Assembly: GCA_964347265.1 (NCBI GenBank)
Contig: CAYFXV010000003.1
Location: forward strand, 3,001 to 67,000
Direction of reading: 5' to 3'
Source: an uncultured archaeon
Lineage (GTDB): Archaea; Aenigmatarchaeota; Aenigmatarchaeia; Aenigmatarchaeales; Aenigmatarchaeaceae
Length of the DNA: 64,000 nucleotides
Every line of letters begins with the position of its first letter. The stretch's first letter is position 1. The translations under genes and the position numbers were made by a program. A model generated the notes under the pieces. The model was given only the letters and a program-made list of their open reading frames with translations, did not search any database and was not told where the DNA came from. Positions 4,393 through 55,948 of the stretch are shown one piece after another.

Positions 4393-5022
4393 TTATTCTT
4401 TCTTAAGCATTAATTCAATCTCAAAGGGTATATATGGAATTTTATAAATCAATGGAAGGGGGAAAAAATATCTCTTACTTATGACTTTTAATTTATTTTT
4501 TTTAACAATTTGGAATAATTTATCTTCCTTTAAAATAGAAATGTGAGTTTTATCTTTGTCTAAAAAACCAAAAAATTTTCTAAGCCATGTATCTATTGGC
4601 ACTGATAAAATTAGATATCCTCCTCTCTTTAATTTTTTAACTATTTTTTCAAAGTTTTTTTCAAAGTTTTTTGTATGTTCTAAAACATCTAAAGCAACAA
4701 TACAGTCAAATGATTCATTAGAATATGGCAAAGATTTTTCCAAATCTACAACTTTAAGATTAGCTTTCGGGATTTTTTGTTTTGCTTTTTTAATAGCAAA
4801 TTCTGAAATATCAAATCCATGTAATTCATTAAAAAGGGGGGAAACTTCTTTTAACAACAAACCAAAAGCACAACCAACATCTAAAAATTTACCTCTAATA
4901 TTTTGGTTTTTTATAAAAGAAATTACATTTTTAAATAATTTAGAAGGATTCATTTTTTCATAATCATAATAATTAGATTCTTTAAATCCGTAAAAATAAT
5001 CTCTACCAAATCTTTCTGTCAT
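4393..5022 (-). CDS. Class I SAM-dependent methyltransferase
   Basis: Motif I LDVGCAFGLLL and an acidic post-I residue (FDISE). Length 209 aa. Confidence 0.75.
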   Translation of the reverse strand: MTERFGRDYFYGFKESNYYDYEKMNPSKLFKNVISFIKNQNIRGKFLDVGCAFGLLLKEVSPLFNELHGFDISEFAIKKAKQKIPKANLKVVDLEKSLPYSNESFDCIVALDVLEHTKNFEKNFEKIVKKLKRGGYLILSVPIDTWLRKFFGFLDKDKTHISILKEDKLFQIVKKNKLKVISKRYFFPLPLIYKIPYIPFEIELMLKKE

Positions 5023-5047
5023 AACAATTAATAAAATATAAGTATTT

Positions 5048-5662
5048 TTATATTTTTGCTAAAGCAAAAGAATATCTCGAATATTCAGCGAACTTGACTA
5101 CCTTTAAACCATATTTTTCTAAAACTTTTTTTAGTTCATTTTTACTCATAGCTTTTTCAAATCCAAAAGGCCATTTATTTATTTTTTCTAAAAACCATTT
5201 AGTTATTCTGTAATACCAAGCCGGCCTTGGAACAGTAATAAGAATATAACCATTTTTCTTAACGCATTTTTTATGTGTCTCAATGATTTTTTTCTGTTTT
5301 TCATTCGAGAAATGTTCTATTAAACCTTCTGAATGAACAATATCAAATTTCTTTTTGGGTTTAAATCTAAGTAAATCTCTACAAAGAATTTTTGCTTTAA
5401 AATTATGCTTTTTAAACTTCTCTTCTGCAAGTTTTAAAGCTTCTTTACTATTATCAAGCACTGTTGCAGAACCTCCATACTTTTTTAATATTTTCAATGT
5501 TAACATACCTGAACCACATCCTAGCTCAATCACATTTGGGTTCTTTAAGTTTAGTGAATCGAGAAGTTTTTGATACATTTTAAAAACTAGTTTACGGTGA
5601 GTTCTCATTGCTAACACAAATAAGAAATTAGTGTTTGACCAGAACGAGTCCCACTTATTCAT
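5048..5662 (-). CDS. Class I SAM-dependent methyltransferase
   Basis: Motif I IELGCGSGMLT. Length 204 aa. The stop abuts the upstream GT2 gene. Confidence 0.75.
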   Translation of the reverse strand: MNKWDSFWSNTNFLFVLAMRTHRKLVFKMYQKLLDSLNLKNPNVIELGCGSGMLTLKILKKYGGSATVLDNSKEALKLAEEKFKKHNFKAKILCRDLLRFKPKKKFDIVHSEGLIEHFSNEKQKKIIETHKKCVKKNGYILITVPRPAWYYRITKWFLEKINKWPFGFEKAMSKNELKKVLEKYGLKVVKFAEYSRYSFALAKI

Positions 5663-6702
5663 TATCTTTCAACTCTATACCACATGAATTCTTTATTTTT
5701 ATTTTCATCTATCCATGATTTTATTATTAAAAACAAATGTATATTACTTAAAATAAACCATACTGGAAGAGCTAAAAGATCTCTAAGTGATTCTTTGAAA
5801 AATATTCTAGAATAGATTAATAGTATCATATTAAATATAAACAAGCCAAGAAAAGGTAAAACAATTATATATGGTAATTGTAAATAAAAAACAATTGCTA
5901 AAATTGTTGCTGTTATTAAACCAAATGGTGGAAAATAAAAATATATTCCATGCATACCGTCTGATAAGATATTTCTTAATCCTCGACGTCTTTTAAATTT
6001 GATTAACCTAACTGTACCCCTAGCCCATCTCAAACGTTGTTTTAAAAATGATTTAATAGAAATTGGCTCCTCCTGCCATGTTATAGCATGTGGCTCAAAG
6101 ACTGTCTTATAATTGTATTTTTTCATTCTAATTGACATTTCTATATCTTCTATAAACGTGAATGTATCAAAACCACTAATTTTTTCAAGAATTTTTTTCC
6201 TTATAAATATATTTTTGCCAAGAAAGTGAGTATTTGCTCCTAAACTACTCAAAAAATATTCTATAAACGATGTAAAACTTGTTTCTAAAGAGATTGCCCT
6301 AGCTACCAAACTTTTATTTTTATTATAAGATCTAATAGTACCAGCAACAGCTGCTATTTTCTTGTCAGAAAAATGTTTTACAGCCTTTTTTAAACAATTT
6401 TTATCAACTATGCAATCTGCATCATAGATTGCTACGATTTCTCCATTTGCTATATGTAAAACTTCATTCAAAGCTTCTGCTTTACATTTTTTTGGTTTTG
6501 ATTCTATAACTTTTATTCTAGGTTCATACTTTTTACATATTTCTAAAGTTTTATCAGTGGAACCATCTATAGAAACTATTATTTCTAACTTATCTTTTGG
6601 ATAATTTGAATTCAAAAGACTTTTTATACAATTTTCTATAACTTTTTCTTCATTCTTTGCTGGAACAATAGCCGAAACACTAGGTAACATAATATTAATC
6701 AA
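5662..6702 (-). CDS. Family 2 glycosyltransferase with a C-terminal membrane domain
   Basis: SAIVPAKNEE start, DGSTD and DAD motifs, C-terminal TM helices. Length 346 aa. Confidence 0.8.
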   Translation of the reverse strand: MINIMLPSVSAIVPAKNEEKVIENCIKSLLNSNYPKDKLEIIVSIDGSTDKTLEICKKYEPRIKVIESKPKKCKAEALNEVLHIANGEIVAIYDADCIVDKNCLKKAVKHFSDKKIAAVAGTIRSYNKNKSLVARAISLETSFTSFIEYFLSSLGANTHFLGKNIFIRKKILEKISGFDTFTFIEDIEMSIRMKKYNYKTVFEPHAITWQEEPISIKSFLKQRLRWARGTVRLIKFKRRRGLRNILSDGMHGIYFYFPPFGLITATILAIVFYLQLPYIIVLPFLGLFIFNMILLIYSRIFFKESLRDLLALPVWFILSNIHLFLIIKSWIDENKNKEFMWYRVER

Positions 6703-7528: not shown

Positions 7529-7546
7529 ATCCTCGAGAGGGTTCAT
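7529..7546. repeat. Degenerate copy of the tRNA-Thr 3' end (att-like): GAA-CCCTCTCGAGG on the minus strand
   Basis: Plus-strand cctcgagagggttc at 7531-7544 matches the minus-strand tRNA-Thr 3' end (GAATCCCTCTCGAGGCT) at 14 of 15 positions with a 1-nt deletion, in the same orientation. Confidence 0.5.
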
Positions 7547-7626: not shown

Positions 7627-7638
7627 AATTATATAAAC
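7627..7638 (+). promoter_or_regulatory. Candidate archaeal TATA box upstream of the giant surface-protein gene
   Basis: ttatataaa lies about 40 nt upstream of the TTG start at 7677. Confidence 0.3.
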
Positions 7639-7676
7639 AGCTTTTTAAATTATATTTTACATAAAGTGGTGTTTTT

Positions 7677-10600
7677 TTGAAAAGAAAATATTTTTTGAGT
7701 ATTTTTATGTTTGTTTTATCAACTTTTCTTATTTCAAGGAGTGCTTCTGCAGCAATCTATTTAAACGCTTACGTTACAGGTTTTACAACGTCTGGAAGTA
7801 ACATAACTATTCAGGGCAATATACAGAATACTACAGTAAGTGATACTATATCAGGTATAAATGTTACAGGCAGTGTTACAGGTAGTTCAAATTCTGGAGT
7901 TACAGGAGCTCCTGGCACATTTAACTTTAATGTCAGTGCACCATCAGCTATAGGCGATTATGATATGACTGTTACAACAAATTCTTCTGCTTTACCAACC
8001 AAAACTATTACAGTTCATATTGGTAATGTTTCAAGCGGTAATATAACATACATTAATAAGAAACCACCATTCGTAGCAGGTAGCACTTTTAACATTAATG
8101 TTACTTTGTTAAATTCAACAGGAGATCCTTTGGTAAATAAAAGTTCTACAGATTTATTAAAAATATTTTCTGCAAATGGCCAAGAAGTTTCTGGATGGAC
8201 TATAACAGCTTTAGATTCTTTATCTGATTCAAATGGGGTTATAAGATATTCAATTGTAATACCGTCAGATGCTGATGGTCCATATATAATTGTTGTTGAA
8301 TATGGTTCTGTATATAGCATTTTCAGTGTTAAATCCAGTTATATAGTTTCTGTTGTTACTCATGATCCTTCTGATGAAAATGAGATTGGTTTTAACTTTG
8401 CTCCTGGTAGTTCTGTAAGTATTTTGGCAAAGGTAAGAGACATTAATGGCAATCCTACAACAGCAACCAGTGTGACAGCATACATAAAGGCTCCGGATAG
8501 TTCAATAACAACTCTTAGTTTAACTGCAAGAGATCAGAACACATATCCTGGTTTTTATAATAATACTTTTACAGCTTCACAGAATGGTAATTATGAGGTC
8601 AGGATCGATGCTGTTGTTGGTAGTTCAACCATTCAGAGTTATACTATGTTTAATACAAAGAGCTTTGCTGTTAGAATAGAATCTGTAAAAGAATTCTTTA
8701 TGGAGTGGGGTGGACAAGCTGCTTTTAAAGCTGGGGATACTGTTGCCTTAAATGTTATTGCAATAAATCTAACAGACGATTCTATAATCCAAAGTCCAAA
8801 CTCACTTAATTGTAGCAATATTACTGTAACAAGCATGTGGAACACAAGTGATAACATCCAATTTACTATTACAAATTCTACTAGCTCAAGTCAATATATG
8901 ATAACTCCTATTTGCAAAATTACTTTTACTGCACCTTCGGTTTCTGGATTATATGGTCTAAGAGCTAATGTAACAATAGGTTCTACAACTGAAATAACAG
9001 AAGGATTCTTTTCCGTTCAAAACTATTTGTTAAAGGCAGCAACTGTTTCTGGAATGGGAGGCGAAATGGACTTTATGCCAATGGCAACCCCAGGGGAAAA
9101 TGCTACTATATCTATAAAAGCATTTAATTTAACTTCAAATGCTGCCATTGATGGTACTCTTATACAAAATATTTCTGTAATAAAAATAATCCCACTTGAG
9201 TTTAAGTTTGGTGCAACTGAAATTACATCTAATATTAATTATACTGTTACTTATGGTTCTAGCCCATATGTTACACTTAACATACCTCAAATAATTAGAG
9301 GACCTGTAATGGTTGAGATTCGGGCAAATATATCAGGAAATATAGTAAGAGGCAGTGCATTTTTTGTTTCTAGTTATGTTTCAGGATTCTTAGGACCTGT
9401 ACAACCTGAAACTGGAGGTGGCCCTGGTCCAGGCGGTGGAGGTGGCCCATCATTTTTATCATGTACAGCAGGTGTATATAATTTTTCTGGAACAGTATAT
9501 GAAACTAAAACAAATAGAGCTGCTAATGGTGTTTCAATTTATTCTATAGCAGAAGTAAGAGAAGAGTTTACAGGCAGAGATGTTTCTGAATATGTTAACT
9601 TATCAGTAACTGGAACAACTGACTCTAATGGAAATGTTAATATAAGTGTAACATTACTTCCAGGATATAATTTCGAAGGTTTCTATTTCATGATTCTTAA
9701 TGTGACTTATAAAGGCAATTATGATGGCGTACCTGCTGGATTCATGTGTAGAAAATTTAACTTTTGGCCAAAAGTCATGTCTATTGGCAGTAATCAAGAT
9801 AACTGGAGAATAGCTCCTGAATCTGGTGTGGTTATTAATGTTGTGAATGCAACTCGTCTTTCAGACAAAAAACTGGTTAATAATCAGACCACGATTTCAT
9901 TAACTAGAATAATGAACTTTAATCCATCAAAAGGCGGCATGAGTCTTTTAGTTAATAACACACCATTAACATTTATTTTTGAACAGACTGGTAATATCAC
10001 TGACCCAACATCAAATAATGTTAGTTTTGTTATTTACCCACAGAACTTTACTTTAGAAGGTAGTGTACTATCAAAATGGCCAAATGGTTTTGTTGAACTA
10101 CAACCAAGGGTTTGTGATTCTACTGTTGGTTGTGATGTATCATTTGGAGGATTTCAAATAGTTCCATTTGATGCTTGGGTTGAGGATTGGCAATGGGGAG
10201 GAACATACTATGCAGGACAGAACATATCTGCAAACATATCTGCAAAAACTAATGTTAGTTCTATAGGTAACTTCACAGTAAAAATAGGAAGGCCTTGGGA
10301 AGGGGAATTACAAACAGCAACAATTATTAATGCAACAAAACTAGAAGATGGTTGGAATAATACAAATGATACAGGAAGGGAATTATGGAATTTAACATTT
10401 ACAATACCTTCTACAATAAGGAAAGGTGGGGCAGAATTAATGATTACAGTTAACTCTTCTGCTAATACAACACCGGGAGAAAAAACTGATCTGCATCTAT
10501 GGTTACAAATTTCAAAATACTCAGTTATAATTCCTTATGAAGAAGGTTTAGGATGGGTAGATGGGTATGCTGTTAATAATACTGAGGCACAACAACAATT

Positions 10601-12119
10601 TGGTTGGAATATGACTTATATTAATGAGACATATAATACTTGGTCTAAAACAGCTGATGGCAGTGTGTGTGCAAAGGATCAATTTAATGTAACAAGATGG
10701 ATGAGCGGATCATCACAAGATGTAGTTTATAACTCTTCAACAAAAGTATTAATAGTTGATAACACAACTGCTGGTATTTATGATACTTTAATATTTAATG
10801 AGAGTGGCACAATAAAAATTGTTGATATCAACAATCGTAATATAACTCCTATAGATGGTTCAGGTTCATTATACCTTTGGAAAATTGATTTTTGCGGTTA
10901 TGTTAGATTAATTAATACATCTACTATTGCTCTTCCGACAGGTGGAAACTGGGGAGGACAATATCAAACCAATAAACAATTTGTTGTTCCATATGTTATT
11001 AAAAAAGCAGACAATTTACAGCCAGGAGTAACAATAAGTGTAAATGGTGTGGCAAAACAAGAATGGGGAGGTTTTGGATTCGAAGAAAAATTAGAAGGAG
11101 AGGAAAATTCAAGTTTAATTGTTCCAATTGGTAAAAATTATACATTTGCTTCTGTTAATACTGATACAAATGGAGTTGCATTTCTAAAAGTTAATATTTC
11201 CCCAAGCGGAAGGTATAATCTATTCTGGAAAATAAACATATCTGGTGATGAAGACATAGCCTCATATGAAAGTGGAACAAATGTAGAAATTAAAAAGTTC
11301 ATGACCAGAGGTGGACCAGCTTATTGGTTGTCCAAAGGTAAAGTTGATCTATACTGGACAAATAACACAATGGGAGAACCAGATGCTCCAGTATGGGGTG
11401 CACACTGTCCTGATCCAGCTGGTTGTGGTGGAAGTGCTTTTGTGCCATTTGTTTACAATGGGACTGTTACTGAAACTGATACATTTGATTTTATTCAAGA
11501 CTCCAATATAACAACACCGTGGTATATTATATGGGCTCCAAATACAAACATGACAAGTATAGACGATGATACTAACATGTCACAGGGCAATGATACAATT
11601 AATGATTATGACTCACTCTATCGTTACATAAACACTAGTTTTGATATTCAATCTACATTTGGTGCAGAGCCAAATACAAGAATTGCTGTGTCCACTTATC
11701 GTAATACTAGCACAGGTCCCACAAATAAAATGACTTTTCTTTTCTATCAACCAGAACCAGAACTTTCACAAATTCAAGAAGTTACAAGCGCAACTGCAAT
11801 TGCCCATGTTAAAATTTGTGCAGAAACATTTGACAAGCCACAACCATTGCCAATAGAAGGAGCAAGTATTGTGTTAAAAGCTGAAAAATTCTTGCCAATG
11901 CAACCACCCACATTAGAATTATTACAGCTTTATGATCCTATTAATGGTAGTGCTGTAAGCAGTGTGTTAACAGGTCCAACAGGTTGTGCTATTGTTAAAG
12001 CAGGTCCGGGAGCCTTAGGCACCTGGCCGATTGGTCAAACTACGTGGATACAAGGCACTATAACAAATGGAACTCAAACAGAAAATGTTTGGGGAGGAGG
12101 AGTTTGGTACTCGGGTTGA
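7677..12119 (+). CDS. Giant secreted surface protein (1480 aa), SlaA-like S-layer/adhesin candidate, heavily N-glycosylation-sequon rich
   Basis: TTG start followed by a textbook signal peptide MKRKYFLSIFMFVLSTFLISRSASA|A. Dozens of N-x-S/T sequons, a Gly-Pro linker (GGGPGPGGGGGP) and no TM anchor. Confidence 0.8.
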   Translation: MKRKYFLSIFMFVLSTFLISRSASAAIYLNAYVTGFTTSGSNITIQGNIQNTTVSDTISGINVTGSVTGSSNSGVTGAPGTFNFNVSAPSAIGDYDMTVTTNSSALPTKTITVHIGNVSSGNITYINKKPPFVAGSTFNINVTLLNSTGDPLVNKSSTDLLKIFSANGQEVSGWTITALDSLSDSNGVIRYSIVIPSDADGPYIIVVEYGSVYSIFSVKSSYIVSVVTHDPSDENEIGFNFAPGSSVSILAKVRDINGNPTTATSVTAYIKAPDSSITTLSLTARDQNTYPGFYNNTFTASQNGNYEVRIDAVVGSSTIQSYTMFNTKSFAVRIESVKEFFMEWGGQAAFKAGDTVALNVIAINLTDDSIIQSPNSLNCSNITVTSMWNTSDNIQFTITNSTSSSQYMITPICKITFTAPSVSGLYGLRANVTIGSTTEITEGFFSVQNYLLKAATVSGMGGEMDFMPMATPGENATISIKAFNLTSNAAIDGTLIQNISVIKIIPLEFKFGATEITSNINYTVTYGSSPYVTLNIPQIIRGPVMVEIRANISGNIVRGSAFFVSSYVSGFLGPVQPETGGGPGPGGGGGPSFLSCTAGVYNFSGTVYETKTNRAANGVSIYSIAEVREEFTGRDVSEYVNLSVTGTTDSNGNVNISVTLLPGYNFEGFYFMILNVTYKGNYDGVPAGFMCRKFNFWPKVMSIGSNQDNWRIAPESGVVINVVNATRLSDKKLVNNQTTISLTRIMNFNPSKGGMSLLVNNTPLTFIFEQTGNITDPTSNNVSFVIYPQNFTLEGSVLSKWPNGFVELQPRVCDSTVGCDVSFGGFQIVPFDAWVEDWQWGGTYYAGQNISANISAKTNVSSIGNFTVKIGRPWEGELQTATIINATKLEDGWNNTNDTGRELWNLTFTIPSTIRKGGAELMITVNSSANTTPGEKTDLHLWLQISKYSVIIPYEEGLGWVDGYAVNNTEAQQQFGWNMTYINETYNTWSKTADGSVCAKDQFNVTRWMSGSSQDVVYNSSTKVLIVDNTTAGIYDTLIFNESGTIKIVDINNRNITPIDGSGSLYLWKIDFCGYVRLINTSTIALPTGGNWGGQYQTNKQFVVPYVIKKADNLQPGVTISVNGVAKQEWGGFGFEEKLEGEENSSLIVPIGKNYTFASVNTDTNGVAFLKVNISPSGRYNLFWKINISGDEDIASYESGTNVEIKKFMTRGGPAYWLSKGKVDLYWTNNTMGEPDAPVWGAHCPDPAGCGGSAFVPFVYNGTVTETDTFDFIQDSNITTPWYIIWAPNTNMTSIDDDTNMSQGNDTINDYDSLYRYINTSFDIQSTFGAEPNTRIAVSTYRNTSTGPTNKMTFLFYQPEPELSQIQEVTSATAIAHVKICAETFDKPQPLPIEGASIVLKAEKFLPMQPPTLELLQLYDPINGSAVSSVLTGPTGCAIVKAGPGALGTWPIGQTTWIQGTITNGTQTENVWGGGVWYSG

Positions 12120-12124
12120 TTTTA

Positions 12125-13657
12125 ATGAACAAAATTTTATTCTTATTAATAATCATAACTTTTCTAGTTTTTACAATACCTGTTTTGGCAACAATAACAG
12201 ATGTATCAACTAGTGCTTCTGTAACAAGAGCAACTACAGGAACAAATGTGGTAGTATCCGTTACTACAACATCAAGCGAAAGTGATACAGCTGATATTCG
12301 TTTGATAGCTCCGTCAGAAATTTCAATTTCTGATCCTTCTGCTCAATATTATCCAAGTGTTTCTGTTACAGGACAGGTAACAAAACCCTTCACAATAACA
12401 GCGGGAACGTCAGGAACTTATAGTAATATTTATGGTCAGGCAACACCTACTGGCCAATCTCCTGTTTCTTCAACACCAATAACAATAGTGTTTGAAGATC
12501 CCAGTGCACTTACTGTTTCTGGATCTCCAAGCTCTACTACAAAAAGTCGCAGCGAATCTTTCACATTATCAATTACAATTTCTAATCCTCAGGCAAATGA
12601 TATAACAACATATTATGCTTTAACCTGTCCTTCAGAAATTAGCTGTAGCGGAGATCTTACATCTAATACAATTACTGTTAGTTCAAGTTCTTCAACAAAT
12701 CTTCAATGGACAGCTACAGTATCTTCGTTAGCAACAGCTGGTGCAAAAACAATAAGTTTTCAATTAGGTGATGCAACAAATGCATTTACAACAACTGTTA
12801 CTGTTTCTGTTCCTTCAGATTCTCCTGGTGGTTCTGGAGCTATTATTGGAGGTGGACCAGTAACCAAAGTTACAGTATCAAAAGGAAATGCAAATATAAC
12901 AATTCCATCAATAGCAGCTAATAAAACAGCAGTTGTTTCAATAACAAAAACAGAAGATGTTGCATTTAGACAGATTAATATTTCTGTTGCAAATTCTGTT
13001 AACAATATAAAAATAGTTATCACTAAAATACCGGGTTTGCCGGCATCTGTAACTCATGAAATTTCTGGAAAAATTTATCATTATATTGAGATTAATAAAG
13101 AAAATATAACTGATGTAAATGTTAACAAAATTTATATTAAATTTGCTGTTAATAAAACGTGGTTAACAGATAACAATGTTGATGCTTTAAACATTGCCCT
13201 TTATAGATGGAATAATGGCCAGTGGAATGAATTAGAAACTGACTATGTTAGTGAAGACGTTTCCGAAGTGTTTTATCAGGCAGAATCTCCTGGATTCTCC
13301 TATTTCTTAATTGGAACCAAAGGAGGTGCACCTGCTGCGCCTACTGGAGCAGCTATTGCCTGCAAAGAAAGTTGGTCTTGTACAGGTTGGTCTTCATGTA
13401 TCAACAACCAACAAACAAGAACATGTACAGATTCAAACAACTGTGGAACAACTGTTAAAAAGCCTGCTGAATCACAAATATGCGAAGTAGGAAAAGCAGA
13501 ATTCGGAATTACAATAACTTCTATTTTAACTTATTTAGCAATAATTGTTATAGCAATAGTAATTTGTGTTTTCATTTTCTTACAAAGAGCTAAAATAAGT
13601 GGTTTTTTGAGAAGTTCAAATAAAAGCACAAAAAAAAAGAATAAAAAAGGAACTTAG
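12125..13657 (+). CDS. Thr/Ser-rich secreted protein with a C-terminal TM anchor (510 aa), SlaB-like partner of the upstream giant protein
   Basis: ATG lies 5 nt after the upstream stop. Signal peptide MNKILFLLIIITFLVFTIPVLA; T/S-rich; Cys-rich module CKESWSCTGWSSC...C...C; C-terminal TM ILTYLAIIVIAIVICVFIFL plus a KKKNKKGT tail. Confidence 0.75.
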   Translation: MNKILFLLIIITFLVFTIPVLATITDVSTSASVTRATTGTNVVVSVTTTSSESDTADIRLIAPSEISISDPSAQYYPSVSVTGQVTKPFTITAGTSGTYSNIYGQATPTGQSPVSSTPITIVFEDPSALTVSGSPSSTTKSRSESFTLSITISNPQANDITTYYALTCPSEISCSGDLTSNTITVSSSSSTNLQWTATVSSLATAGAKTISFQLGDATNAFTTTVTVSVPSDSPGGSGAIIGGGPVTKVTVSKGNANITIPSIAANKTAVVSITKTEDVAFRQINISVANSVNNIKIVITKIPGLPASVTHEISGKIYHYIEINKENITDVNVNKIYIKFAVNKTWLTDNNVDALNIALYRWNNGQWNELETDYVSEDVSEVFYQAESPGFSYFLIGTKGGAPAAPTGAAIACKESWSCTGWSSCINNQQTRTCTDSNNCGTTVKKPAESQICEVGKAEFGITITSILTYLAIIVIAIVICVFIFLQRAKISGFLRSSNKSTKKKNKKGT

Positions 13658-13728: not shown

Positions 13729-13741
13729 AGCCTCGAGAGGG
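13729..13741. repeat. 13-nt exact copy of the tRNA-Thr 3' end (CCCTCTCGAGGCT on the minus strand), att-like
   Basis: Plus-strand agcctcgagaggg is identical to the T-stem 3' strand plus acceptor 3' strand plus discriminator of tRNA-Thr (17078-17090), in the same orientation. It is followed on the minus strand by an oligo-T run. Confidence 0.55.
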
Positions 13742-16012: not shown

Positions 16013-16579
16013 TTATTTTTGAACTTGTCTACACTCATTATCTATACACTTTATTGTCAAGTGACCTGCTATTCCAGTGCAAAAATCAGGACATTGCTTG
16101 CTTTCATCAACATATTTTTCGTTTCCATAAAAACAATCTCCTGTCCTTATATGAACTCCGCAACTGCAGTCTGCATCAACATTGCAATATTTTTCTTCTG
16201 TAACTTCAGAACAATCGCCTTCTAGATAAAATGCAACATTCGGGTTCATGCAAGCAAAACAAGAATTCGAATAGGTTCTTGCATCATTGCCGCAAACTGG
16301 TTTGTATATCTCTATGCATGCATCGACGTTTCTGGATTCATCCGAACATTTGTATCTTGTTCTGTTTGTGTCGTAAGGAAAGCATGGATTGGGCTGTATA
16401 ATATTTCCATTATCGTCAGTATAGGTACAACCTCCTCCAATGTGTCCTGGAATACAGTCTATGCAAATAGCTTCTGGTTGTTTGGAGGTATTAATATAAA
16501 ATGCAATTAATATCAAAACTATTAGTATAAACAAAAGCATTTCAATATTTTTAATCATTTTTTCACTATTTTTTTTCAT
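16013..16579 (-). CDS. Cys-rich secreted/anchored protein with a Kazal-type inhibitor-like domain
   Basis: YKPVCGNDARTYSNSCFAC matches the Kazal core (PVCG.DG.TY.N.C..C), and 22 Cys in all. The ORF track starts at TTG 16588; the ATG at 16579 gives MKKNSEKMIKNIEM plus an N-terminal TM/signal. Confidence 0.6.
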   Translation of the reverse strand: MKKNSEKMIKNIEMLLFILIVLILIAFYINTSKQPEAICIDCIPGHIGGGCTYTDDNGNIIQPNPCFPYDTNRTRYKCSDESRNVDACIEIYKPVCGNDARTYSNSCFACMNPNVAFYLEGDCSEVTEEKYCNVDADCSCGVHIRTGDCFYGNEKYVDESKQCPDFCTGIAGHLTIKCIDNECRQVQK

Positions 16580-16742
16580 TAAAACCAATAAAAAAAAACC
16601 CGATTCCTAAAATAAACGAAACGAGCGCAAACATAAATGGAAAAAAAGCATCAAATTTTAGGAAATAAGGAATTACGAAAAATGCAATAGACACTATAAT
16701 CAATATACTTCCAACAGCAAGACTATAAGTACGTTTATTCAT
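16566..16742 (-). CDS. Unlisted 58-aa membrane mini-protein
   Basis: MNKRTYSLAVGSILIIVSIAFFVIPYFLKFDAFFPFMFALVSFILGIGFFFIGFNEKK has two predicted TM segments. It overlaps the start of the Kazal-like gene. Confidence 0.25.
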   Translation of the reverse strand: MNKRTYSLAVGSILIIVSIAFFVIPYFLKFDAFFPFMFALVSFILGIGFFFIGFNEKK

Positions 16743-17077: not shown

Positions 17078-17199
17078 AGCCTCGAGAGGGATTCGAACCC
17101 TCGACCTACTGCTTACATGCCCTCATTGCGGTAACTCCTTGAGACCAAAAAAATCATTGGGATACAAGGCAGTCGCTCTACCAGCTGAGCTATCGAGGC
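17078..17199 (-). tRNA. tRNA-Thr (UGU) with a 49-nt intron at position 37/38
   Basis: Reverse complement: GCCTCGA acceptor, GCTC-AGCTGGTA-GAGC D-arm, anticodon stem ACTGC/GCAGT with loop CTTGTA[intron]A, T-arm GAGGG-TTCGAAT-CCCTC. Mature length 73 nt. Confidence 0.75.
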
Positions 17200-30549: not shown

Positions 30550-31431
30550 ATGTTCAAACCAAGAAAAACGAAACCTAGATTTCCAGCACAAAATGAAGTT
30601 TTCTTTTCTGTAAAAAATAATCCTTCAACATATGAAGAAATAAGTCAGAGAACAGGAAAATCAAAAGAGCAACTATACACTCATGTAATCAGTTTAAATA
30701 AAAAGGGTATAGTTGGAACAGTAAACATGAGTTTAGGTAAGAGTGGGAGCAGTTATGGATATTCTTCATATGAACTTGTTGGTAAACTAATAAAAAAATC
30801 AATAATCTATGTTTTGGGAGATGAAACACTTCTTGGTAAAAGAATAATAAGAGATATGCCAGCAGAATTGACTCAAGGAATGAAAAAAGGTATAACCACA
30901 AGATTAATACCTAAACTTCCGTATGATGCTGCTGAAGTTATCCGTGATTATATGCGTGAACATGTTGTTTGTAGATATCCATTTGATACTAAAGAACATG
31001 AAGTGGAGATAGTAAATCCTGGAGGAGAATTTGCTCATGAAAACTTTCCAAAATCAAAGTATGCAACAGACTTTGTCTTACCATTAGGAGCTCCTGTATT
31101 GGCTGCTCATGAAGGGACTGTTATGTCAGCGAAACATGATTCTGATGTTCATTTATCACCAGCAGAAGTAAAACATTTAACCATAGATGAAAAAATAAAT
31201 TTAGCATCAAAATATGCAAATCTTGTAGAAATACGTCATAAAGATGGATTTTTTACTGAATATGCTCATTTAACAAAAAGAGAAGTTGTATCAGAAGAAG
31301 ATGTGAAAGAAGGGGATGTAATAGGTTATGTTGGTATGTCTAGAATAACAAGTTTGTCATATTTACATATCAATGCTTTCAAGATGGAGAATGAAAAACC
31401 TATAAGCATTCCTGTGAAGTTTATTGAGTAA
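30550..31431 (+). CDS. M23 (LytM-type) metallopeptidase with an N-terminal winged-helix domain
   Basis: The C-terminus carries FAHENF..D, AAHEGTV and YAHL....V..G..V..G..IGYVGMS.....YLHINAF, matching the M23 HxxxD / HxH layout. The N-terminus is wHTH-like. Confidence 0.6.
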   Translation: MFKPRKTKPRFPAQNEVFFSVKNNPSTYEEISQRTGKSKEQLYTHVISLNKKGIVGTVNMSLGKSGSSYGYSSYELVGKLIKKSIIYVLGDETLLGKRIIRDMPAELTQGMKKGITTRLIPKLPYDAAEVIRDYMREHVVCRYPFDTKEHEVEIVNPGGEFAHENFPKSKYATDFVLPLGAPVLAAHEGTVMSAKHDSDVHLSPAEVKHLTIDEKINLASKYANLVEIRHKDGFFTEYAHLTKREVVSEEDVKEGDVIGYVGMSRITSLSYLHINAFKMENEKPISIPVKFIE

Positions 31432-49548: not shown

Positions 49549-49936
49549 AGTTTCAATAGAATTTATTAGTTTAGTTGGTTTTATATTAATTATTTTTATT
49601 GTTATTTTAATTACTGTTGGTCTTAAAAACGATGAAATAGCTGAATCAACTGTTTTTTCAGATGCACAAAAAATTGCTAATTTAATAGCAAATGAAATTA
49701 ATTTTGCAGCTAGTATAGAAGGCTATTACAGAGAGTTTACACTACCTTCAAAACTTATAGACAATATAGAATATAATGTTTCTATTAATACAAATTTGAG
49801 GTTTGTTGAAGTTAAATGGAATGGTAAAAATGCTGTTTCTCGCATAATTACAGAAAATATTAATGGAGAAGTAAAACCTGGATTGAATAGAATTAGAATT
49901 AAAAATGATGAGGGGTTGGTCTTAATTGAAAGCTGA
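49526..49936 (+). CDS. Pilin-like protein (divergent class III signal)
   Basis: MLTSQKSEVSIEFISLVGFILIIF N-terminus. Overlaps its neighbours. Confidence 0.4.
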   Translation: MLTSQKSEVSIEFISLVGFILIIFIVILITVGLKNDEIAESTVFSDAQKIANLIANEINFAASIEGYYREFTLPSKLIDNIEYNVSINTNLRFVEVKWNGKNAVSRIITENINGEVKPGLNRIRIKNDEGLVLIES

Positions 49937-50414
49937 ATTATTCTCCTCGGATTTTGTTATGGGATTATTCATATTTTTAATAGGAATAGTTATATTTGAG
50001 GTATTTTATAGTAACCTTTACGCAGAAATAAACGATTATGGGATTCGTGATGACATACAAGCAAAACTTAATAGCATAGCAGATTTTTTGGCAACAAGTA
50101 CTGGTTATCCAGAATACTGGGACAATAATACTGTAAAAGTTATAGGACTTTTTAATTCTGGTTTAATAAACTTAACTAAATTTAATGAACTTCAAAAAAT
50201 AGAATACCACACTGTAAAAAAAATGATGGGTGCTGGAAGTTATGAAATTTATATTGAAGTTCAAAATGAGACGGGAGACCTTATAAATGATTATAAATAT
50301 GGTACCAAAGAAGGTGAAAATGCTAATCAAGTTTTTTATGTAAAAAGATTAGGTTTGATCGATTGGAATGGCAATGTAACAAAGGCTATTTTAAATGTTG
50401 GTGTTTGGTTATGA
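49926..50414 (+). CDS. Pilin-like / FlaF-FlaG-like N-terminally anchored protein
   Basis: MKAELFSSDFVMGLFIFLIGIVIF N-terminal helix. Length 162 aa. Confidence 0.4.
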   Translation: MKAELFSSDFVMGLFIFLIGIVIFEVFYSNLYAEINDYGIRDDIQAKLNSIADFLATSTGYPEYWDNNTVKVIGLFNSGLINLTKFNELQKIEYHTVKKMMGAGSYEIYIEVQNETGDLINDYKYGTKEGENANQVFYVKRLGLIDWNGNVTKAILNVGVWL

Positions 50415-52294
50415 GAGGTATTATTTTTACTTTAGATGCTTTGATAGCCCTTGGCATAATAATAGGACTAATAACTGGTTTAATTTTCTTCAGAACAAAG
50501 ATAGCATCACCTTATCTAGCTTCCCAACAACTACATTTCATATCAGAGGATGTATTAACAGTTTTTTCTAACTCTAAACTCAGAGATGTTGTTGATAATC
50601 AAACTTTATTGGATCAATATATATCAGATGGTATTTTAAATCAAAGTGATTTAGATGAAAAAACAATAGATGTTATAGGTGCTCTATGGTCTGCTGGAAA
50701 TGTATCTGAAGCAGCAAATCTAACAAAAGATATTTTAGATGATTTTATTCCAAGTAATATTGGTTATGAATTTCTGATAGACAATGATCCCATTTACAAT
50801 TCTTCAGACACAACAAGACCAAGTTATGGAGATTCAACAATAGAAATTTCTTCTGGTAGAATTGTTTCTGGTTATGAAAAAGGTAAAGCTACAAGAGGAT
50901 ATGTTGCAAGAGCTATAGCAAGAAGAATAAATAAAAATAATACGCTTGTTGTAATGGGCGATCTCATAACTACTAGTGTAGCAAGTGCCCAAAATAAAAT
51001 AAATATAAGTTATATTGCAGACCTGCCAGATGATGCTACTATTCTAGATACTTATTGGTTTATAGAAGCTACTTGGGGAATTAAAAATAAATTTAGTTGT
51101 TGGATGAATGGTGAAAAAATAGATGGATGTGAAGGAGCAATAGGTAATACAAAATTAGAATCTGGAGATTATATAGACCTTCTACAGCCTGGACACAATA
51201 TAGGTAAAATAGTTTATAGAAAATTCTCGGATGAACCAACTGCTGGTGATGATGGAGCAACACATTTAGTTATAACGTATAACACCTCTCAATTATCAAC
51301 TCTCCAAGAATTTGGAAAACAATATTTTCAAACTACGATTTCAGAAGCACCTATAGAATATAAAAAACCAATATTCACAATTAATGATATTTATAACATG
51401 AGTATTCATATTAATCTTACCAATACAACAGAAGTTAAAAATGTGACGTTAAAGTTCATGTGGAATGGACAAGGTTATAATATAAGTATAAAAAATGTTA
51501 CAAACGGCACAGTAGATTGGAATGATACAGAAATAAAAAGTGTTTTGAACTCTAATGGAATTTCATATGATCTCTTGACTGGCAGATATTTCTGGTTTAT
51601 TGTTGAAATTGATCCTTATAGGGGAGATGAAACAATGAGTTATGAAAGAAAAATAGTTGGTGAAGATTCTTATGTAAGTCTCAATTATTCTAAAATTCTC
51701 GACATAGGAGCAATATATAATTATATTGATATGACAAGAACACTTACAGATTATATTGCTGAAGATGTTGATCCTAACTTTGGGATGTCGGGTTTTTATA
51801 GGTATATCAGATGGGACTTTAATTTAACAAGTAAAATTCCTTTAATGGCTAGATGGCAATATCCATGGGGCCATTGGGCTGGGTGGGATCCATTACAACT
51901 TGTAAGAGCAAATAACATTACGATTTATAATCACGACCCAACTAATGCATCGAGTGATCCTTTTATGAAGGCATTTGTTAGATTTGGTTATAATGCTAAT
52001 CCATATGGTGTTCTTATTAGTGATGATAATAAATTTGAACTTAATTTCAGTGATGGTTATTCCATTAATCCTGCAGATTCTTTTGGAGATACTACATTTT
52101 TAGTACCAGCATCTGTAGGTTATGGCGATTTATTTGAAAATGAAACTGATGCAGTTGATGATGCAGTCCAACGGTTGCAGGACGTATTAGGTGAAGACAT
52201 TTCAGTTATGGAATTGATCGTAGATGCTGTTAGAATTGGTGGTGTTCCTTATATGTGGGGACCAGTTAGTGCAAGAGTTAAAACGTGGGTGTAG
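50411..52294 (+). CDS. Large pilin-like protein (628 aa), candidate minor pilin / tip adhesin
   Basis: ATG at 50411 overlaps the upstream stop (ATGA). The N-terminus MRG|IIFTLDALIALGIIIGLI resembles a prepilin F-T-L-(I/D) motif. The remainder is an N-x-T/S-rich extracellular domain. Confidence 0.55.
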   Translation: MRGIIFTLDALIALGIIIGLITGLIFFRTKIASPYLASQQLHFISEDVLTVFSNSKLRDVVDNQTLLDQYISDGILNQSDLDEKTIDVIGALWSAGNVSEAANLTKDILDDFIPSNIGYEFLIDNDPIYNSSDTTRPSYGDSTIEISSGRIVSGYEKGKATRGYVARAIARRINKNNTLVVMGDLITTSVASAQNKINISYIADLPDDATILDTYWFIEATWGIKNKFSCWMNGEKIDGCEGAIGNTKLESGDYIDLLQPGHNIGKIVYRKFSDEPTAGDDGATHLVITYNTSQLSTLQEFGKQYFQTTISEAPIEYKKPIFTINDIYNMSIHINLTNTTEVKNVTLKFMWNGQGYNISIKNVTNGTVDWNDTEIKSVLNSNGISYDLLTGRYFWFIVEIDPYRGDETMSYERKIVGEDSYVSLNYSKILDIGAIYNYIDMTRTLTDYIAEDVDPNFGMSGFYRYIRWDFNLTSKIPLMARWQYPWGHWAGWDPLQLVRANNITIYNHDPTNASSDPFMKAFVRFGYNANPYGVLISDDNKFELNFSDGYSINPADSFGDTTFLVPASVGYGDLFENETDAVDDAVQRLQDVLGEDISVMELIVDAVRIGGVPYMWGPVSARVKTWV

Positions 52295-52296
52295 TG

Positions 52297-53526
52297 ATGA
52301 GAGGTTTGCTTTATAGTATAATGGCGGCTTTGATTATTATTCCATTATTCAGTATCATATTTTTCTATTCTCAAATAGGACAAGAAAACATTGACATTAG
52401 TATAAGAGCTAATGAACTTAAATATTTTGTAGACAGTATTGAAGCTGATTTAAATAGGTTCATGGAAATAACAGGAAAAAGAGCTTTAATATCAGCTGTA
52501 TCTAATATTACGGTTAGTGGAATTCCTCTTGATGACGCACAAATAAGACTGAGGGAGTTAATAGAAAACGGAACCTTAAAGGGCGCACCTTCTCCACTTG
52601 TTGATACAGATAATTTAAATACATGGGAAGGAAAAATTGGAACATTGGCAAGTAATTCTGGTTTTTATCTGACTTTTGAAGTTTTAGAAATGAATGTAAC
52701 ACAAAATGATAGTTTTAATATTTTATTTGAAATTAAGGGTTTTGTAAATATTTCTGACCTGAATGCAAAAATGGGTGTTATAAGAAATATAACCGCAACA
52801 TCTATTGTTTCTATAGATAATATAGAAGATCCTCTATTCCCATTAAATACATTAGGCAGAGTATTTAGAGTAATAAGGTATTATAATTTTACTAATTATG
52901 CAAAAGATATAGTCCAAGGAACCAATGCTTCCCTTACTTCTGTTAGTGGAAATGCAACAATAATTAATTCATCCGATCTTACTGTTTCAGACGCTGATAA
53001 AATTCTTGTAACAGATATTATTGCGGACAGTAAAATAGGTATTATTATTGGATTTAAAGGAGTTGTCGCAGAAAGTGATTATGTTCCTGCTGGATTTTCA
53101 AAACCATATATTGTCGGAGCACCAAACGCAATGTCTTTAATTCAAGAAAACGAAAGAATATATTTAGATCCTAGACTATACACAAAAAAAGTTTGGGATT
53201 TGCAAAACTTAACTTCAGCTATACGAAATGGTTATTACAAATCTTCTGATAAAGGACCAAGTTTTTTAGACAGATTGGAAGGTAGATTAAGTCTTTCAGA
53301 CAAATATAATAATTATGGTTTAGAATCATTTGTTGACTTACCAGAAATATCTCAAGCAAATTTAGAAGTAGATTATACATTAAGTTGTGTTGATTATGAA
53401 TATTGGAAAAATACTACAGGTAGATCTATAAGAAATGGAGCTCCAGGCGATCCTTATGATCCGGTATTTAATTGGTTTAAAATAGATCTATTTCATCAAA
53501 ATATTTATGGTGTAAATGAACTATAA
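52297..53526 (+). CDS. Large pilin-like protein (409 aa)
   Basis: ATG lies 3 nt after the upstream stop. N-terminus MRG|LLYSIMAALIIIPLF. Confidence 0.5.
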   Translation: MRGLLYSIMAALIIIPLFSIIFFYSQIGQENIDISIRANELKYFVDSIEADLNRFMEITGKRALISAVSNITVSGIPLDDAQIRLRELIENGTLKGAPSPLVDTDNLNTWEGKIGTLASNSGFYLTFEVLEMNVTQNDSFNILFEIKGFVNISDLNAKMGVIRNITATSIVSIDNIEDPLFPLNTLGRVFRVIRYYNFTNYAKDIVQGTNASLTSVSGNATIINSSDLTVSDADKILVTDIIADSKIGIIIGFKGVVAESDYVPAGFSKPYIVGAPNAMSLIQENERIYLDPRLYTKKVWDLQNLTSAIRNGYYKSSDKGPSFLDRLEGRLSLSDKYNNYGLESFVDLPEISQANLEVDYTLSCVDYEYWKNTTGRSIRNGAPGDPYDPVFNWFKIDLFHQNIYGVNEL

Positions 53527-53543
53527 TTTGAATAGGGAATTAA

Positions 53544-54383: not shown

Positions 54384-54396
54384 ATTTGGTGAATAA

Positions 54397-55947: not shown

Positions 55948-55948
55948 A

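Follow-up and report, generated by a model that had tools for sequence, protein, structure and literature searches.

The closest described parallel to the locus analysed here is the SlaA/SlaB pair of the Sulfolobales, in which SlaA diverges much faster than SlaB. Aenigmatarchaeota cells are believed to make a living through surface contact with hosts and, to our knowledge, no cell-envelope protein has been characterized in this phylum. According to a preprint of 2023 on Nanobdella, experiments have yet to determine any S-layer protein of the DPANN; the same work proposes MJ1_0160 and MJ1_0707 of Nanobdella aerobiophila (DPANN) as SlaA-like and SlaB-like proteins, respectively (bioRxiv 10.1101/2023.10.27.564410). 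Aenigmatarchaeota S-layers have been predicted in silico from MSTP-like proteins of 745 and 794 residues; these S-layer proteins (SLPs) are orthologous across the DPANN, and hexagonal lattices are predicted for them (Johnston et al., bioRxiv 10.1101/2024.05.28.596244).

The window, a stretch of 64,000 nucleotides from the metagenome-assembled genome of an uncultured Aenigmatarchaeota archaeon, carries two adjoining genes, A and B. We consider it fairly probable that their products form a two-part membrane-tethered surface glycoprotein complex of the Aenigmatarchaeota (DPANN) cell, analogous to SlaA/SlaB and of independent origin, with an accessory outer structure or one for host or substrate contact being likelier than the primary S-layer lattice.

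Gene A (7677–12119, forward strand) was read as an open reading frame for a 1480-residue product with a TTG start at 7677. NCBI NIM47037.1 (hypothetical protein) has the same start; another copy, P0001, begins at M11. The gene and its upstream region comprise

7629–7637, forward strand: TATA-box-like TTATATAAA after a purine-rich stretch, a candidate archaeal promoter of the A–B operon (read from the sequence)
7650–7659: a second TATA-like run, 5' of gene A (read from the sequence)
7668–7671, forward strand: Shine–Dalgarno-like GGTG, 5 nt before the TTG of gene A; the alternative ATG at 7707 lacks such a motif
7677–7751, forward strand: signal peptide of A, residues 1–25, with a KRK n-region and cleavage between ASA and A (sequence; the N-termini of homologues are hydrophobic too)
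7752–9413, forward strand: N-arm of A, about five tandem β-sandwich (macroglobulin-like) domains (AF2, Foldseek, Pfam MG2)
9414–9449, forward strand: Gly/Pro hinge GGGPGPGGGGGP of A, residues 580–591, Gly-rich in 10/10 homologues and disordered in both AF2 models (pLDDT < 35)
9450–12116, forward strand: C-body of A, about eight more β-rich domains (AF2, conservation)

The element at 7629–7637 could be the promoter of the A–B operon; a sigma-70 scan is inapplicable to archaea. The N-terminus, MKRKYFLSIFMFVLSTFLISRSASA preceding the A at the cleavage site, is the sole hydrophobic segment of A, which is therefore anchorless; the C-body carries neither a TM helix nor a sorting signal. The protein is acidic (120 D+E versus 85 K+R) and contains 65 N-x-S/T sequons where its composition predicts 24, a density of 4.4 per 100 residues; ORFs of 150 residues or longer in the window, A and B included, average 1.0. 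The original prediction of a secreted, anchorless giant of 1480 residues, with a TTG start, a signal peptide cleaved at ASA, dozens of sequons and a hinge, is borne out in each of these respects.

The predicted fold of A, from alignments of only ten sequences, consists of about 13 β-sandwich (macroglobulin/Ig-like) domains. The AF2 models, built on these ten sequences, have pLDDT values of about 71–73 and pTM values of 0.43–0.55; that of the N-arm (m492719da964a) is all-β with a pLDDT of 72.6 and that of the C-body (meca336a50966) has a pLDDT of 70.7 and a pTM of 0.55. The most conserved motifs of the family (NFNP..GG, YPQNF, WPNGF, DTGFGGFQVVPFDAW, GRPWEGEL and DGWN) are located in the C-body. 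A profile search placed A in a closed family of type-I giants comprising 91 clusters. The Pfam MG2 match in A itself is weak (residues 243–311, 8403–8609), and ten of ten family members match MG2, with a best E-value of 3.7e-11. Foldseek returned as top matches the MG arrays of C3, C5, A2M, CD109 and TEP1 with E-values of 1e-15 to 1e-12. These MG2 and Foldseek matches would suit a protease trap of the α2-macroglobulin type acting at the membrane, like bacterial A2M, but the TM-scores are just 0.1–0.3, none of the 22 giants examined has the CxEQ thioester motif, and the helices in the models of A are short (no longer than eight residues), with no helical thioester domain. As the thioester domain is missing, a protease trap is effectively refuted.

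Gene B (12125–13657, forward strand) encodes a 510-residue protein, 13.5% Thr and 12.9% Ser, listed by NCBI as NIM47036.1, a PGF-pre-PGF domain-containing protein. The TGA stop codon of A (12117–12119) and the ATG of B at 12125 are separated by 5 nt, a gap which implies that translation of the two genes would be coupled. The parts of B are

12125–12190, forward strand: signal peptide of B, residues 1–22, cleaved between VLA and T (sequence)
12191–12859, forward strand: N-half of B, residues 23–245, two Thr/Ser-rich Ig-like (CARDB/filamin-type) domains (weak Ig/CARDB matches)
12947–13312, forward strand: PGF-pre-PGF domain (TIGR04213), residues 275–396 (92.1 bits; cut-off 28)
13361–13483, forward strand: six-Cys module, residues 413–453, C-x3-W-x-C-x2-WS-x-C...QTRTCTD.N.CGT...KP.E...C (CKESWSCTGWSSC...C...C...C)
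13508–13582, forward strand: C-terminal TM helix, residues ~462–486 (hydropathy 3.2)
13583–13654, forward strand: basic cytoplasmic tail (sequence)

This agrees with what had been proposed for the second gene, namely a Thr/Ser-rich product starting 5 nt on, with a Cys-rich module just before a C-terminal TM anchor. The PGF-pre-PGF domain is 68–78% identical to that of the partners of unrelated giants. It also ends single-chain surface proteins of 600–2100 residues in several archaeal phyla, most of which add a TM helix at the C-terminus and some the Cys module; this identifies the domain as a generic membrane-proximal anchor. The six-Cys module occurs in 20 of 50 B homologues and in single-chain PGF-pre-PGF proteins of Aenigmatarchaeota and Woesearchaeota. 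No NCBIfam match to PGF-CTERM (TIGR04126) was obtained for B at E ≤ 1, and the C-terminus (...GITITSILTYLAIIVIAIVICVFIFLQRAK...) contains no PGF.

With its signal peptide, β-sandwich ectodomain, single C-terminal TM helix and position right after the gene for the large subunit, B has the topology of SlaB. It does not have the long C-terminal coiled coil that in SlaB connects the β-sandwich to the TM helix. The PGF-pre-PGF domain is separated from the TM helix (interval 397–461) by only 58 Pro/Gly/Cys-rich residues (TKGGAPAAPTGAAIACKESWSC...), and so short a segment of this composition leaves no possibility of a heptad stretch or a coiled-coil stalk.

The pair recurs. In at least 20 Aenigmatarchaeota loci a B homologue of 448–534 residues with a C-terminal TM helix starts −4 to +12 nt after a giant of 1314–2531 residues; co-occurrence in relatives had been put forward as a check on the original prediction. 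Because these loci come from different Aenigmatarchaeota, the pairing is not a matter of chance; it is a phylum-wide two-gene module, previously uncharacterized. At least three to four classes of giants can be told apart, with no mutual similarity or only that of weak MG repeats (the giant of the window and that of locus L005 give a BLASTP E-value of 0.86 and an hhalign probability of 0.2%), and B is nevertheless kept. One genome holds two giant–pedestal pairs (L022 and L023), tandem extra pairs are present at L001 and L003, and the genomic position of the pair varies between lineages.

The two halves of B behave differently. Over 190 locus pairs, which are phylogenetically non-independent so that the p-value of the co-variation is not to be taken literally, the Spearman correlation of giant similarity with B identity is 0.67 for the N-half and 0.14 for the C-half. 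The N- and C-halves are, for example, 23 and 78% identical in P0015 and 53 and 33% identical in P0079. B of the window is uniquely chimeric, with an N-half of type I and a C-half of the alpha type. Since the N-half co-varies with the giant, it may well be the adaptor that binds it. Were A instead untethered, it would be a released extracellular protein serving in a matrix, in binding or in scavenging, and B an unrelated, co-regulated membrane protein. The missing anchor of A would fit such a role, but the tight or overlapping junctions are kept across unrelated giant classes and the giant co-varies with the N-half of B, and we regard the idea as improbable.

Topology, domain content, sequon enrichment, the conserved adjacency and the co-variation of the N-half of B with A are direct observations; binding between A and B, glycosylation and function are inferred. 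In the tethered complex that we favour, Sec signal peptides would export both proteins. A, a chain of about 160 kDa with some 13 β-sandwich domains, a Gly hinge and presumed heavy N-glycosylation but no membrane anchor, would be held non-covalently by the two N-terminal Ig-like domains of B, a type-I membrane protein with its PGF-pre-PGF domain, six-Cys module, TM helix and basic tail at the membrane. The giant would be the exposed, fast-diversifying part and B the modular pedestal. The predicted division of labour pairs a distal giant, variable and covered with glycans, with a modular pedestal, the N-half of which is matched to that giant, and the module supplies concrete targets for envelope work in enrichment cultures.

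All giants, whatever their class, have 2–2.7 times as many sequons as expected, and at least eight of ten type-I members share each of 33 sequon columns. In four loci of other lineages the pair adjoins genes for AglB/STT3, a flippase and GT2 enzymes. Close to A in the window are

5662–6702, reverse strand: family-2 glycosyltransferase (GT2), upstream of A and transcribed divergently from it
4393–5662: two SAM methyltransferases behind the GT2 gene

The GT2 and SAM methyltransferase genes possibly provide a context of glycan synthesis, and the sequons suggest that A is glycosylated.

Could the pair be a true S-layer, convergent with SlaA/SlaB, in which A forms a two-dimensional lattice canopy raised above the membrane on stalks formed by B? 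The pair fits the SlaA/SlaB layout in gene order, sizes and topology, A is acidic and sequon-rich, AglB and a flippase adjoin the pair in the four loci just mentioned, and a multi-Ig/β-sandwich make-up is typical of archaeal S-layer proteins. The pair is also kept across the phylum with a hypervariable large subunit, and a scheme of SlaA-like and SlaB-like proteins has been proposed for the DPANN archaeon Nanobdella (bioRxiv 10.1101/2023.10.27.564410). Homology points the other way, in that neither SlaA, SlaB nor any solved S-layer protein is related in sequence to A or B, whether single sequences or profiles were used. Searching all PDB chains with A (phmmer and the family profile) gave no match at E ≤ 10; deposited SlaA structures were presumably among these chains. 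The corresponding searches with B found no SlaB and only weak Ig-type matches, and there was no profile match to the Methanosarcina tile protein in the PDB. Neither protein matched the S-layer families of Pfam and NCBIfam or the S-layer tile domain (Pfam S-layer/DUF1608 type) at E ≤ 1. SlaA is missing from the top 50 Foldseek matches of A, which are generic macroglobulin/Ig arrays, in a comparison that cannot separate lattice-forming β-sandwich arrays from those of adhesin type.

Apart from homology, B has no coiled-coil stalk, some genomes hold two or more giant-plus-pedestal pairs, and the hexagonal lattices predicted for Aenigmatarchaeota are made of other, MSTP-like proteins of 745–794 residues (Johnston et al., bioRxiv 10.1101/2024.05.28.596244). 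These last two observations indicate that the pair is probably not the primary S-layer, and we consider a true S-layer unlikely. Of the two roles suggested in the original prediction, an S-layer is accordingly less likely than a host-contact surface organelle. The different S-layer gene that the prediction named as counter-evidence is found at the level of the phylum only, through those in silico predictions; no gene for an MSTP-like S-layer protein was found within the 64 kb window. The tempting label `S-layer' is thereby corrected, as the literature assigns the lattice of the phylum to another protein.

The operon had also been described as lying inside an att-bounded island. Repeats do exist: the window contains exactly three copies of CCTCGAGAGGG, all in the same orientation, against a chance expectation of 0.08.

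7531–7541, forward strand: CCTCGAGAGGG copy 1, 136 nt upstream of A
13731–13741, forward strand: CCTCGAGAGGG copy 2, 74 nt downstream of B
17080–17090, forward strand: CCTCGAGAGGG copy 3, the 3' acceptor/T-arm end of an intron-containing tRNA gene (17078–17199, reverse strand)

That two copies bracket exactly A and B and the third coincides with a tRNA 3' end invites the explanation that site-specific recombination at a tRNA-derived att site inserted the operon as a cassette, the cargo of an integrated or formerly mobile element that serves surface variation (such as host range or virus evasion); the chimeric B and the lineage-dependent position of the pair are in keeping with it. However, neither an integrase nor any other mobility gene lies between the repeats, their identity stops at 11–13 nt, flanking repeats are absent at six other pair loci and relatives of B are absent from viral contigs. 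The GC3 values of A (0.185) and B (0.145) fall within the range of the host genes (0.175 ± 0.031) and thus give no hint of recent import. On this evidence such a cassette is very improbable. A broader speculation, for which we hold out somewhat more but still little hope, is that the pairs constitute an exchangeable outer coat. The giant and the N-half of B would move together between lineages as a cassette, by recombination within the Gly-rich linker that B has around residue 246 and, here, by use of the tRNA-derived CCTCGAGAGGG; the symbiont would swap a canopy for host recognition or virus evasion while keeping a conserved pedestal, and the giant might form a second, outermost ordered layer convergent with SlaA/SlaB.

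Returning to the membrane-tethered complex, several known systems invite comparison. The domains of A, tandem MG-type β-sandwiches by Pfam and Foldseek, are those of the α2-macroglobulin/complement C3 superfamily, from which A differs in having no thioester domain, CxEQ motif or bait region. B shares a bona fide membrane-proximal PGF-pre-PGF domain with the PGF-pre-PGF/PGF-CTERM surface glycoproteins (TIGR04213/TIGR04126), the substrates of archaeosortase A, but ends with a plain TM helix and basic tail in place of the PGF-CTERM signal, and the mass on display is carried by a different polypeptide, A.

The nanohaloarchaeal SPEARE proteins, likewise large, Ig-rich and extracellular, belong to small symbiotic archaea and are thought to serve in host contact; they are, however, 8,900–9,400 residues long, are described as membrane-anchored or cell-bound and contain a VirB4/TraG-like ATPase domain (PMC10266531), whereas A is anchorless, has no enzymatic domain and would depend on a separate pedestal. 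The MSTP-like SLPs (A0A842Q7F5 and A0A8T5PKF4) are, like A and B, secreted β-sandwich envelope proteins of the Aenigmatarchaeota, but they are single chains of 745–794 residues with the MSTP fold and predicted hexamer-plus-dimer (6+2) lattices. MJ1_0160 and MJ1_0707 also combine, in a DPANN envelope, an anchorless Ig-rich, sequon-rich protein with a TM-anchored Ig-rich one. Their locus numbers (0160 and 0707) are distant and they are not described as an adjacent or conserved pair; MJ1_0160, of 1000 residues, is weakly similar to NEQ300 and Micr_00292, and we found no relation to the family of A.

The nearest counterpart in layout is SlaA/SlaB. Both systems have the large-subunit gene followed by the small one in a single operon, a secreted and anchorless multi-β-sandwich large subunit of about 1400–1500 residues with heavy N-glycosylation (for A, as suggested by its sequons), a Ser/Thr-rich small subunit of about 450–500 residues with N-terminal β-sandwich domains and a C-terminal TM helix, and a large subunit that diverges much faster than the anchor. 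They differ in that there is no sequence relation, the phyla are distinct, a long trimeric coiled coil in SlaB takes the place of the PGF-pre-PGF domain and Cys module of B, and several giant–pedestal pairs can occur in a genome. Of the likeness originally drawn to SlaA/SlaB, the gene order, sizes, topology and co-transcribed type-I partner therefore stand, while a sequence relation, a place for SlaA among the top 50 Foldseek matches and a coiled-coil stalk are all wanting. The comparisons indicate that the resemblance is one of layout only, not of ancestry, and that the pair arose independently: a two-subunit design of canopy plus anchor would then have arisen outside the Sulfolobales from unrelated proteins.

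The window is archaeal, with intron-containing tRNA genes, 5S rRNA and a G+C content of about 30%. The giant protein A and its small membrane-anchored partner B are encoded by adjacent genes, which are listed here with the associated elements.

7531–7541 (+), first copy of the 11-mer CCTCGAGAGGG
7677–12119 (+), gene A; start codon TTG with GGTG 5 nt 5' of it, stop codon 12117–12119
12125–13657 (+), gene B; start codon ATG at 12125; signal peptide, six-Cys module, TM helix at about residues 462–486 and basic tail
about 12860 (+), chimera breakpoint in B, near codon 246
13361–13483 (+), six-Cys module of B (residues 413–453), W-x-C-x2-WS-x-C ... QTRTC ... CGT
13731–13741 (+), second copy of CCTCGAGAGGG
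17080–17090 (+), third copy of CCTCGAGAGGG

A is identical to NIM47037.1 (locus tag GTN40_02660, hypothetical protein, 1480 aa) and B to NIM47036.1 (PGF-pre-PGF domain-containing protein, 510 aa), both from the same 'Candidatus Aenigmarchaeota archaeon' MAG at NCBI. The sole hydrophobic stretch in A is its N-terminus, MKRKYFLSIFMFVLSTFLISRSASA/A, and residues 580–591 form a Gly/Pro run. Its 65 N-x-S/T sequons compare with 24 predicted from composition, and their density is 4.4 per 100 aa as against a mean of 1.0 for window ORFs of at least 150 aa. Ser and Thr make up 26% of B. The original prediction had described the start and signal peptide of A, its sequons and Gly/Pro run, and the Cys module and TM helix of B correctly throughout.

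Residues 275–396 of B form a PGF-pre-PGF domain (TIGR04213, 92 bits), preceded by two Ig-like domains with weak CARDB, filamin and PKD matches across the family; no PGF-CTERM signal was found in B. The PGF-pre-PGF domain also terminates single-chain surface proteins of 600–2100 aa in Aenigmat-, Woese- and Nanoarchaeota and Methanosarcinales, most of which also have a C-terminal TM helix and some of which have the Cys module; this distribution fits a general role in anchoring. The six-Cys module loosely recalls a thrombospondin type-1 repeat; no TSP_1 match for B was found in Pfam at E values up to 1. Surface proteins of Aenigmat- and Woesearchaeota likewise have the module ahead of their TM anchor, and short 8–10% matches in CPR (Paceibacterota) proteins, returned by the homolog search, presumably cover it. 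Many B homologs of the beta/delta groups without the Cys module (e.g. at loci L008, L014, L015 and L021) share a conserved cytoplasmic end, GWD(D/E)LK(K/R)KY(S/K)(R/K), unlike window B, which ends in SSNKSTKKKNKKGT.

Pair loci were located through the contigs of B relatives, of which there are more than 100, and by a scan of one genome per GTDB species. The same arrangement was found at no fewer than 20 loci, where the gap between a giant of 1314–2531 aa and the B homolog after it (448–534 aa, with a C-terminal TM helix) is −4 to +12 nt. The pair thus co-occurs in relatives, which the original prediction had suggested as a check. The giants fall into the following classes.

Type I, the window type, 1480–1560 aa
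Type II, 1774–1804 aa
Type III, a looser class, 1621–2531 aa
One further singleton

Giants of every class lack an anchor and show a 2–2.7-fold sequon enrichment; 33 sequon positions are each shared by at least eight of ten type-I members. A word-indexed search found only ten full-length relatives of A (35–44% identity), with no gain from a profile over the single sequence. With HMMER run exhaustively from a C-half profile of A, 91 clusters were recovered, mostly of 1400–1800 aa and with the same architecture, and no bridge from the A family to another. Similarity between type-I and type-II giants was undetectable (BLASTP E = 0.86, hhalign probability 0.2%). Common ancestry of all B-paired giants is unsupported, the sole link being a weak alignment between the type-I N-terminal repeats and the type-III giant of locus L046 (23% identity over 650 aa).

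B is modular, and its N-half varies with the giant that it accompanies. Partners of type-II giants (e.g. P0015) share 21–26% identity with window B in residues 30–245 and 68–78% in residues 248–400, whereas partners of type-I giants share 39–53% in the N-half and only 33–58% in the C-half; in one of these, P0079, the values are 53 and 33%. Over 190 locus pairs the Spearman coefficient between giant similarity and B identity is 0.67 for the N-half and 0.14 for the C-half, and since the pairs are non-independent only the contrast between these values carries meaning. The simplest reading of these sequence comparisons is that the N-half of B serves as a giant-specific adaptor and the C-half as an interchangeable membrane-proximal pedestal. 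Window B itself is a recombinant, because it alone among 50 aligned sequences combines a type-I N-half with a Cys-module ('alpha') C-half. The GT2 genes neighbouring the pair are only 31–35% identical between the window and the lineage whose B C-half is 70–78% identical.

AlphaFold2 models of the two halves of A, calculated separately from a ten-sequence alignment, are almost purely beta (N-half, pLDDT 72.6, pTM 0.43; C-half, pLDDT 70.7, pTM 0.55). They place about five beta-sandwich domains in the N-half, then a disordered Gly hinge and about eight more beta-rich domains. Foldseek searches of the PDB with these models returned only tandem macroglobulin/Ig arrays (C3, C5, alpha-2-macroglobulin, CD109, TEP1, titin and PrgB) with TM-scores of 0.1–0.3. 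The only curated-family match of A is a sub-threshold MG2 (macroglobulin) domain, which is matched in all ten close homologs. A is nevertheless not an alpha-2-macroglobulin, and a protease trap of that kind is rejected as scarcely credible, because the thioester motif is absent, as is the helical thioester domain from the models.

The window neighbours of the pair are housekeeping genes (purA, adenosine kinase, eIF2-gamma, aIF5B, HMG-CoA synthase, tRNAs and 5S rRNA), with one family-2 glycosyltransferase and two methyltransferase genes lying divergently upstream. At four type-II loci a GT2-GT2-AglB(STT3)-flippase gene set lies divergently to the pair, and at L007 PMT, GT2 and sugar-nucleotide genes come after it; this proximity of glycosylation genes supports A as a putative major N-glycosylation substrate. 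The locally higher G+C at the pair stems from second codon positions, that is, from amino-acid composition. A scan for bacterial promoters and terminators carries no information here, the DNA being archaeal.

The window contains precisely three copies of the G+C-rich 11-mer CCTCGAGAGGG (0.08 expected), all on the + strand. The first two flank the A–B operon and nothing else, and the last coincides with the 3' end of an intron-containing tRNA gene, 17078–17199 (−), a layout that would suit a mobile cassette with the pair as cargo. However, no integrase was found between the copies, no flanking repeats were found at six other pair loci, and the GC3 of A and B is host-typical and so gives no support to a recent foreign origin of the operon; we regard the cassette as highly improbable. 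Identity around the copies is limited to 11–13 nt, and relatives of B were not found on viral contigs. Between the second and third copies lie genes for a pyrimidine-dimer glycosylase, a 2-thiouracil desulfurase-like protein and, at 16013–16588 (−), a 191-aa secreted protein, rich in Cys, whose Kazal-type protease-inhibitor domain (E = 3e-8) is unusual for an archaeon.

Two further window regions are noted. A pilus/archaellum-like cluster at 49926–57817 (+) includes a T2SSE/PilB-type ATPase gene (54397–55947), ahead of which are two ORFs of 643 and 413 aa that could not be annotated; the longer of them is probably the ORF that measures 627 aa from its first ATG and has 3.5 sequons per 100 aa. 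Although the archaeon is without murein, 30550–31431 (+) encodes a peptidase M23 of the peptidoglycan endopeptidase type, which might target a bacterial partner or prey.

Additional surface-protein genes accompany the pair at other loci.

L003, 1876–7892, giant of 1696 aa then PGF-pre-PGF protein of 306 aa, in tandem with a type-I pair
L001, 16928–24479, giant of 2127 aa then PGF-pre-PGF protein of 383 aa, in tandem with a type-I pair
L005, 9854–13672, and L088, 11628–14117, type-II lineage, sequon-rich protein (829–1272 aa) with the C-terminal module of B, directly after B
L008, 440–2032; L010, 7–1608; L013, 1671–3230; L014, 1872–3458; L015, 1816–3360; L021, 999–2591, conserved protein of 514–533 aa containing an Ig-like (CARDB/NPCBM_assoc) domain, encoded immediately before the giant

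The last of these, seen at six GTDB loci, may be a third component of the system; it has no counterpart at the corresponding position in the window, whose 466-aa surface ORF is unrelated. Locus L085 (uncultured archaeon SRP216583_co2_141) has eIF2-gamma and aIF5B in common with window 22–27 kb (59–60% identity) and a 1192-aa PGF-pre-PGF protein among these genes, where the window has only small ORFs.

We consider it reasonably probable that A and B constitute a two-part, membrane-tethered and heavily N-glycosylated surface complex, probably an accessory outer or contact structure and not the primary lattice. The pedestal protein B would hold the anchorless A through its N-terminal Ig-like domains; this binding, the glycosylation of A and the function of the complex are what we infer, and the analysis directly shows the topology, the domain content, the adjacency kept across loci and the co-variation. 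By its own topology A could be an untethered secreted protein, which, beside its conserved adjacency to an anchored partner, we judge very unlikely. The A and B families are uncharacterised. Full-text literature searches for 'PGF-pre-PGF' and for Aenigmarchaeota/Aenigmatarchaeota 'S-layer' returned no such pair in titles or abstracts and, as far as this literature shows, a modular pedestal with exchangeable giants is undescribed.

The original prediction had likened the pair to SlaA/SlaB of the Sulfolobales and proposed that it may be an S-layer or a host-contact surface organelle. The layout bears out the likeness, whereas homology and a coiled coil are lacking. Homology to SlaA/SlaB is rejected: comparison with every PDB chain sequence, by single sequence and by profile, revealed no relationship of A or B to these two or to another S-layer protein of solved structure. 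SlaA was absent from the top 50 Foldseek matches for either half of A, for which the fold evidence is generic. SlaB has a coiled-coil stalk; in B only about 60 Pro/Gly/Cys-rich residues separate the PGF-pre-PGF domain from the TM helix, which rules out such a stalk. No rival S-layer gene was recognised within the window, nor next to the pair at other loci, but at the phylum level Johnston et al. (bioRxiv 10.1101/2024.05.28.596244) predict lattices with hexameric and dimeric contacts from two proteins of Aenigmarchaeota (accessions A0A842Q7F5 and A0A8T5PKF4; lengths 745 and 794 aa), members of an MSTP-like family that these authors find orthologous across DPANN; the expectation that no different S-layer gene exists is contradicted to the extent of these predictions. 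Nor is the module unique in a genome: the assembly JACPAE01 holds both a type-II pair (L022) and a type-III pair (L023), and L003 and L001 have tandem modules. Because SlaA/SlaB membership is not borne out, MSTP-like proteins are predicted for the phylum and several modules can share a genome, we do not assign the pair as the S-layer; a true S-layer convergent with SlaA/SlaB, to which the analogous layout and the recurrence of the pair would point, is unlikely.

Large Ig-rich surface proteins with a presumed role in host contact are a recognised feature of DPANN genomes (PMC10266531), and a SlaA-like/SlaB-like scheme was proposed earlier for Nanobdella (bioRxiv 10.1101/2023.10.27.564410). The general design, an anchorless glycoprotein with a separate TM anchor, is already known, and in layout A and B are a good analogue of SlaA and SlaB.
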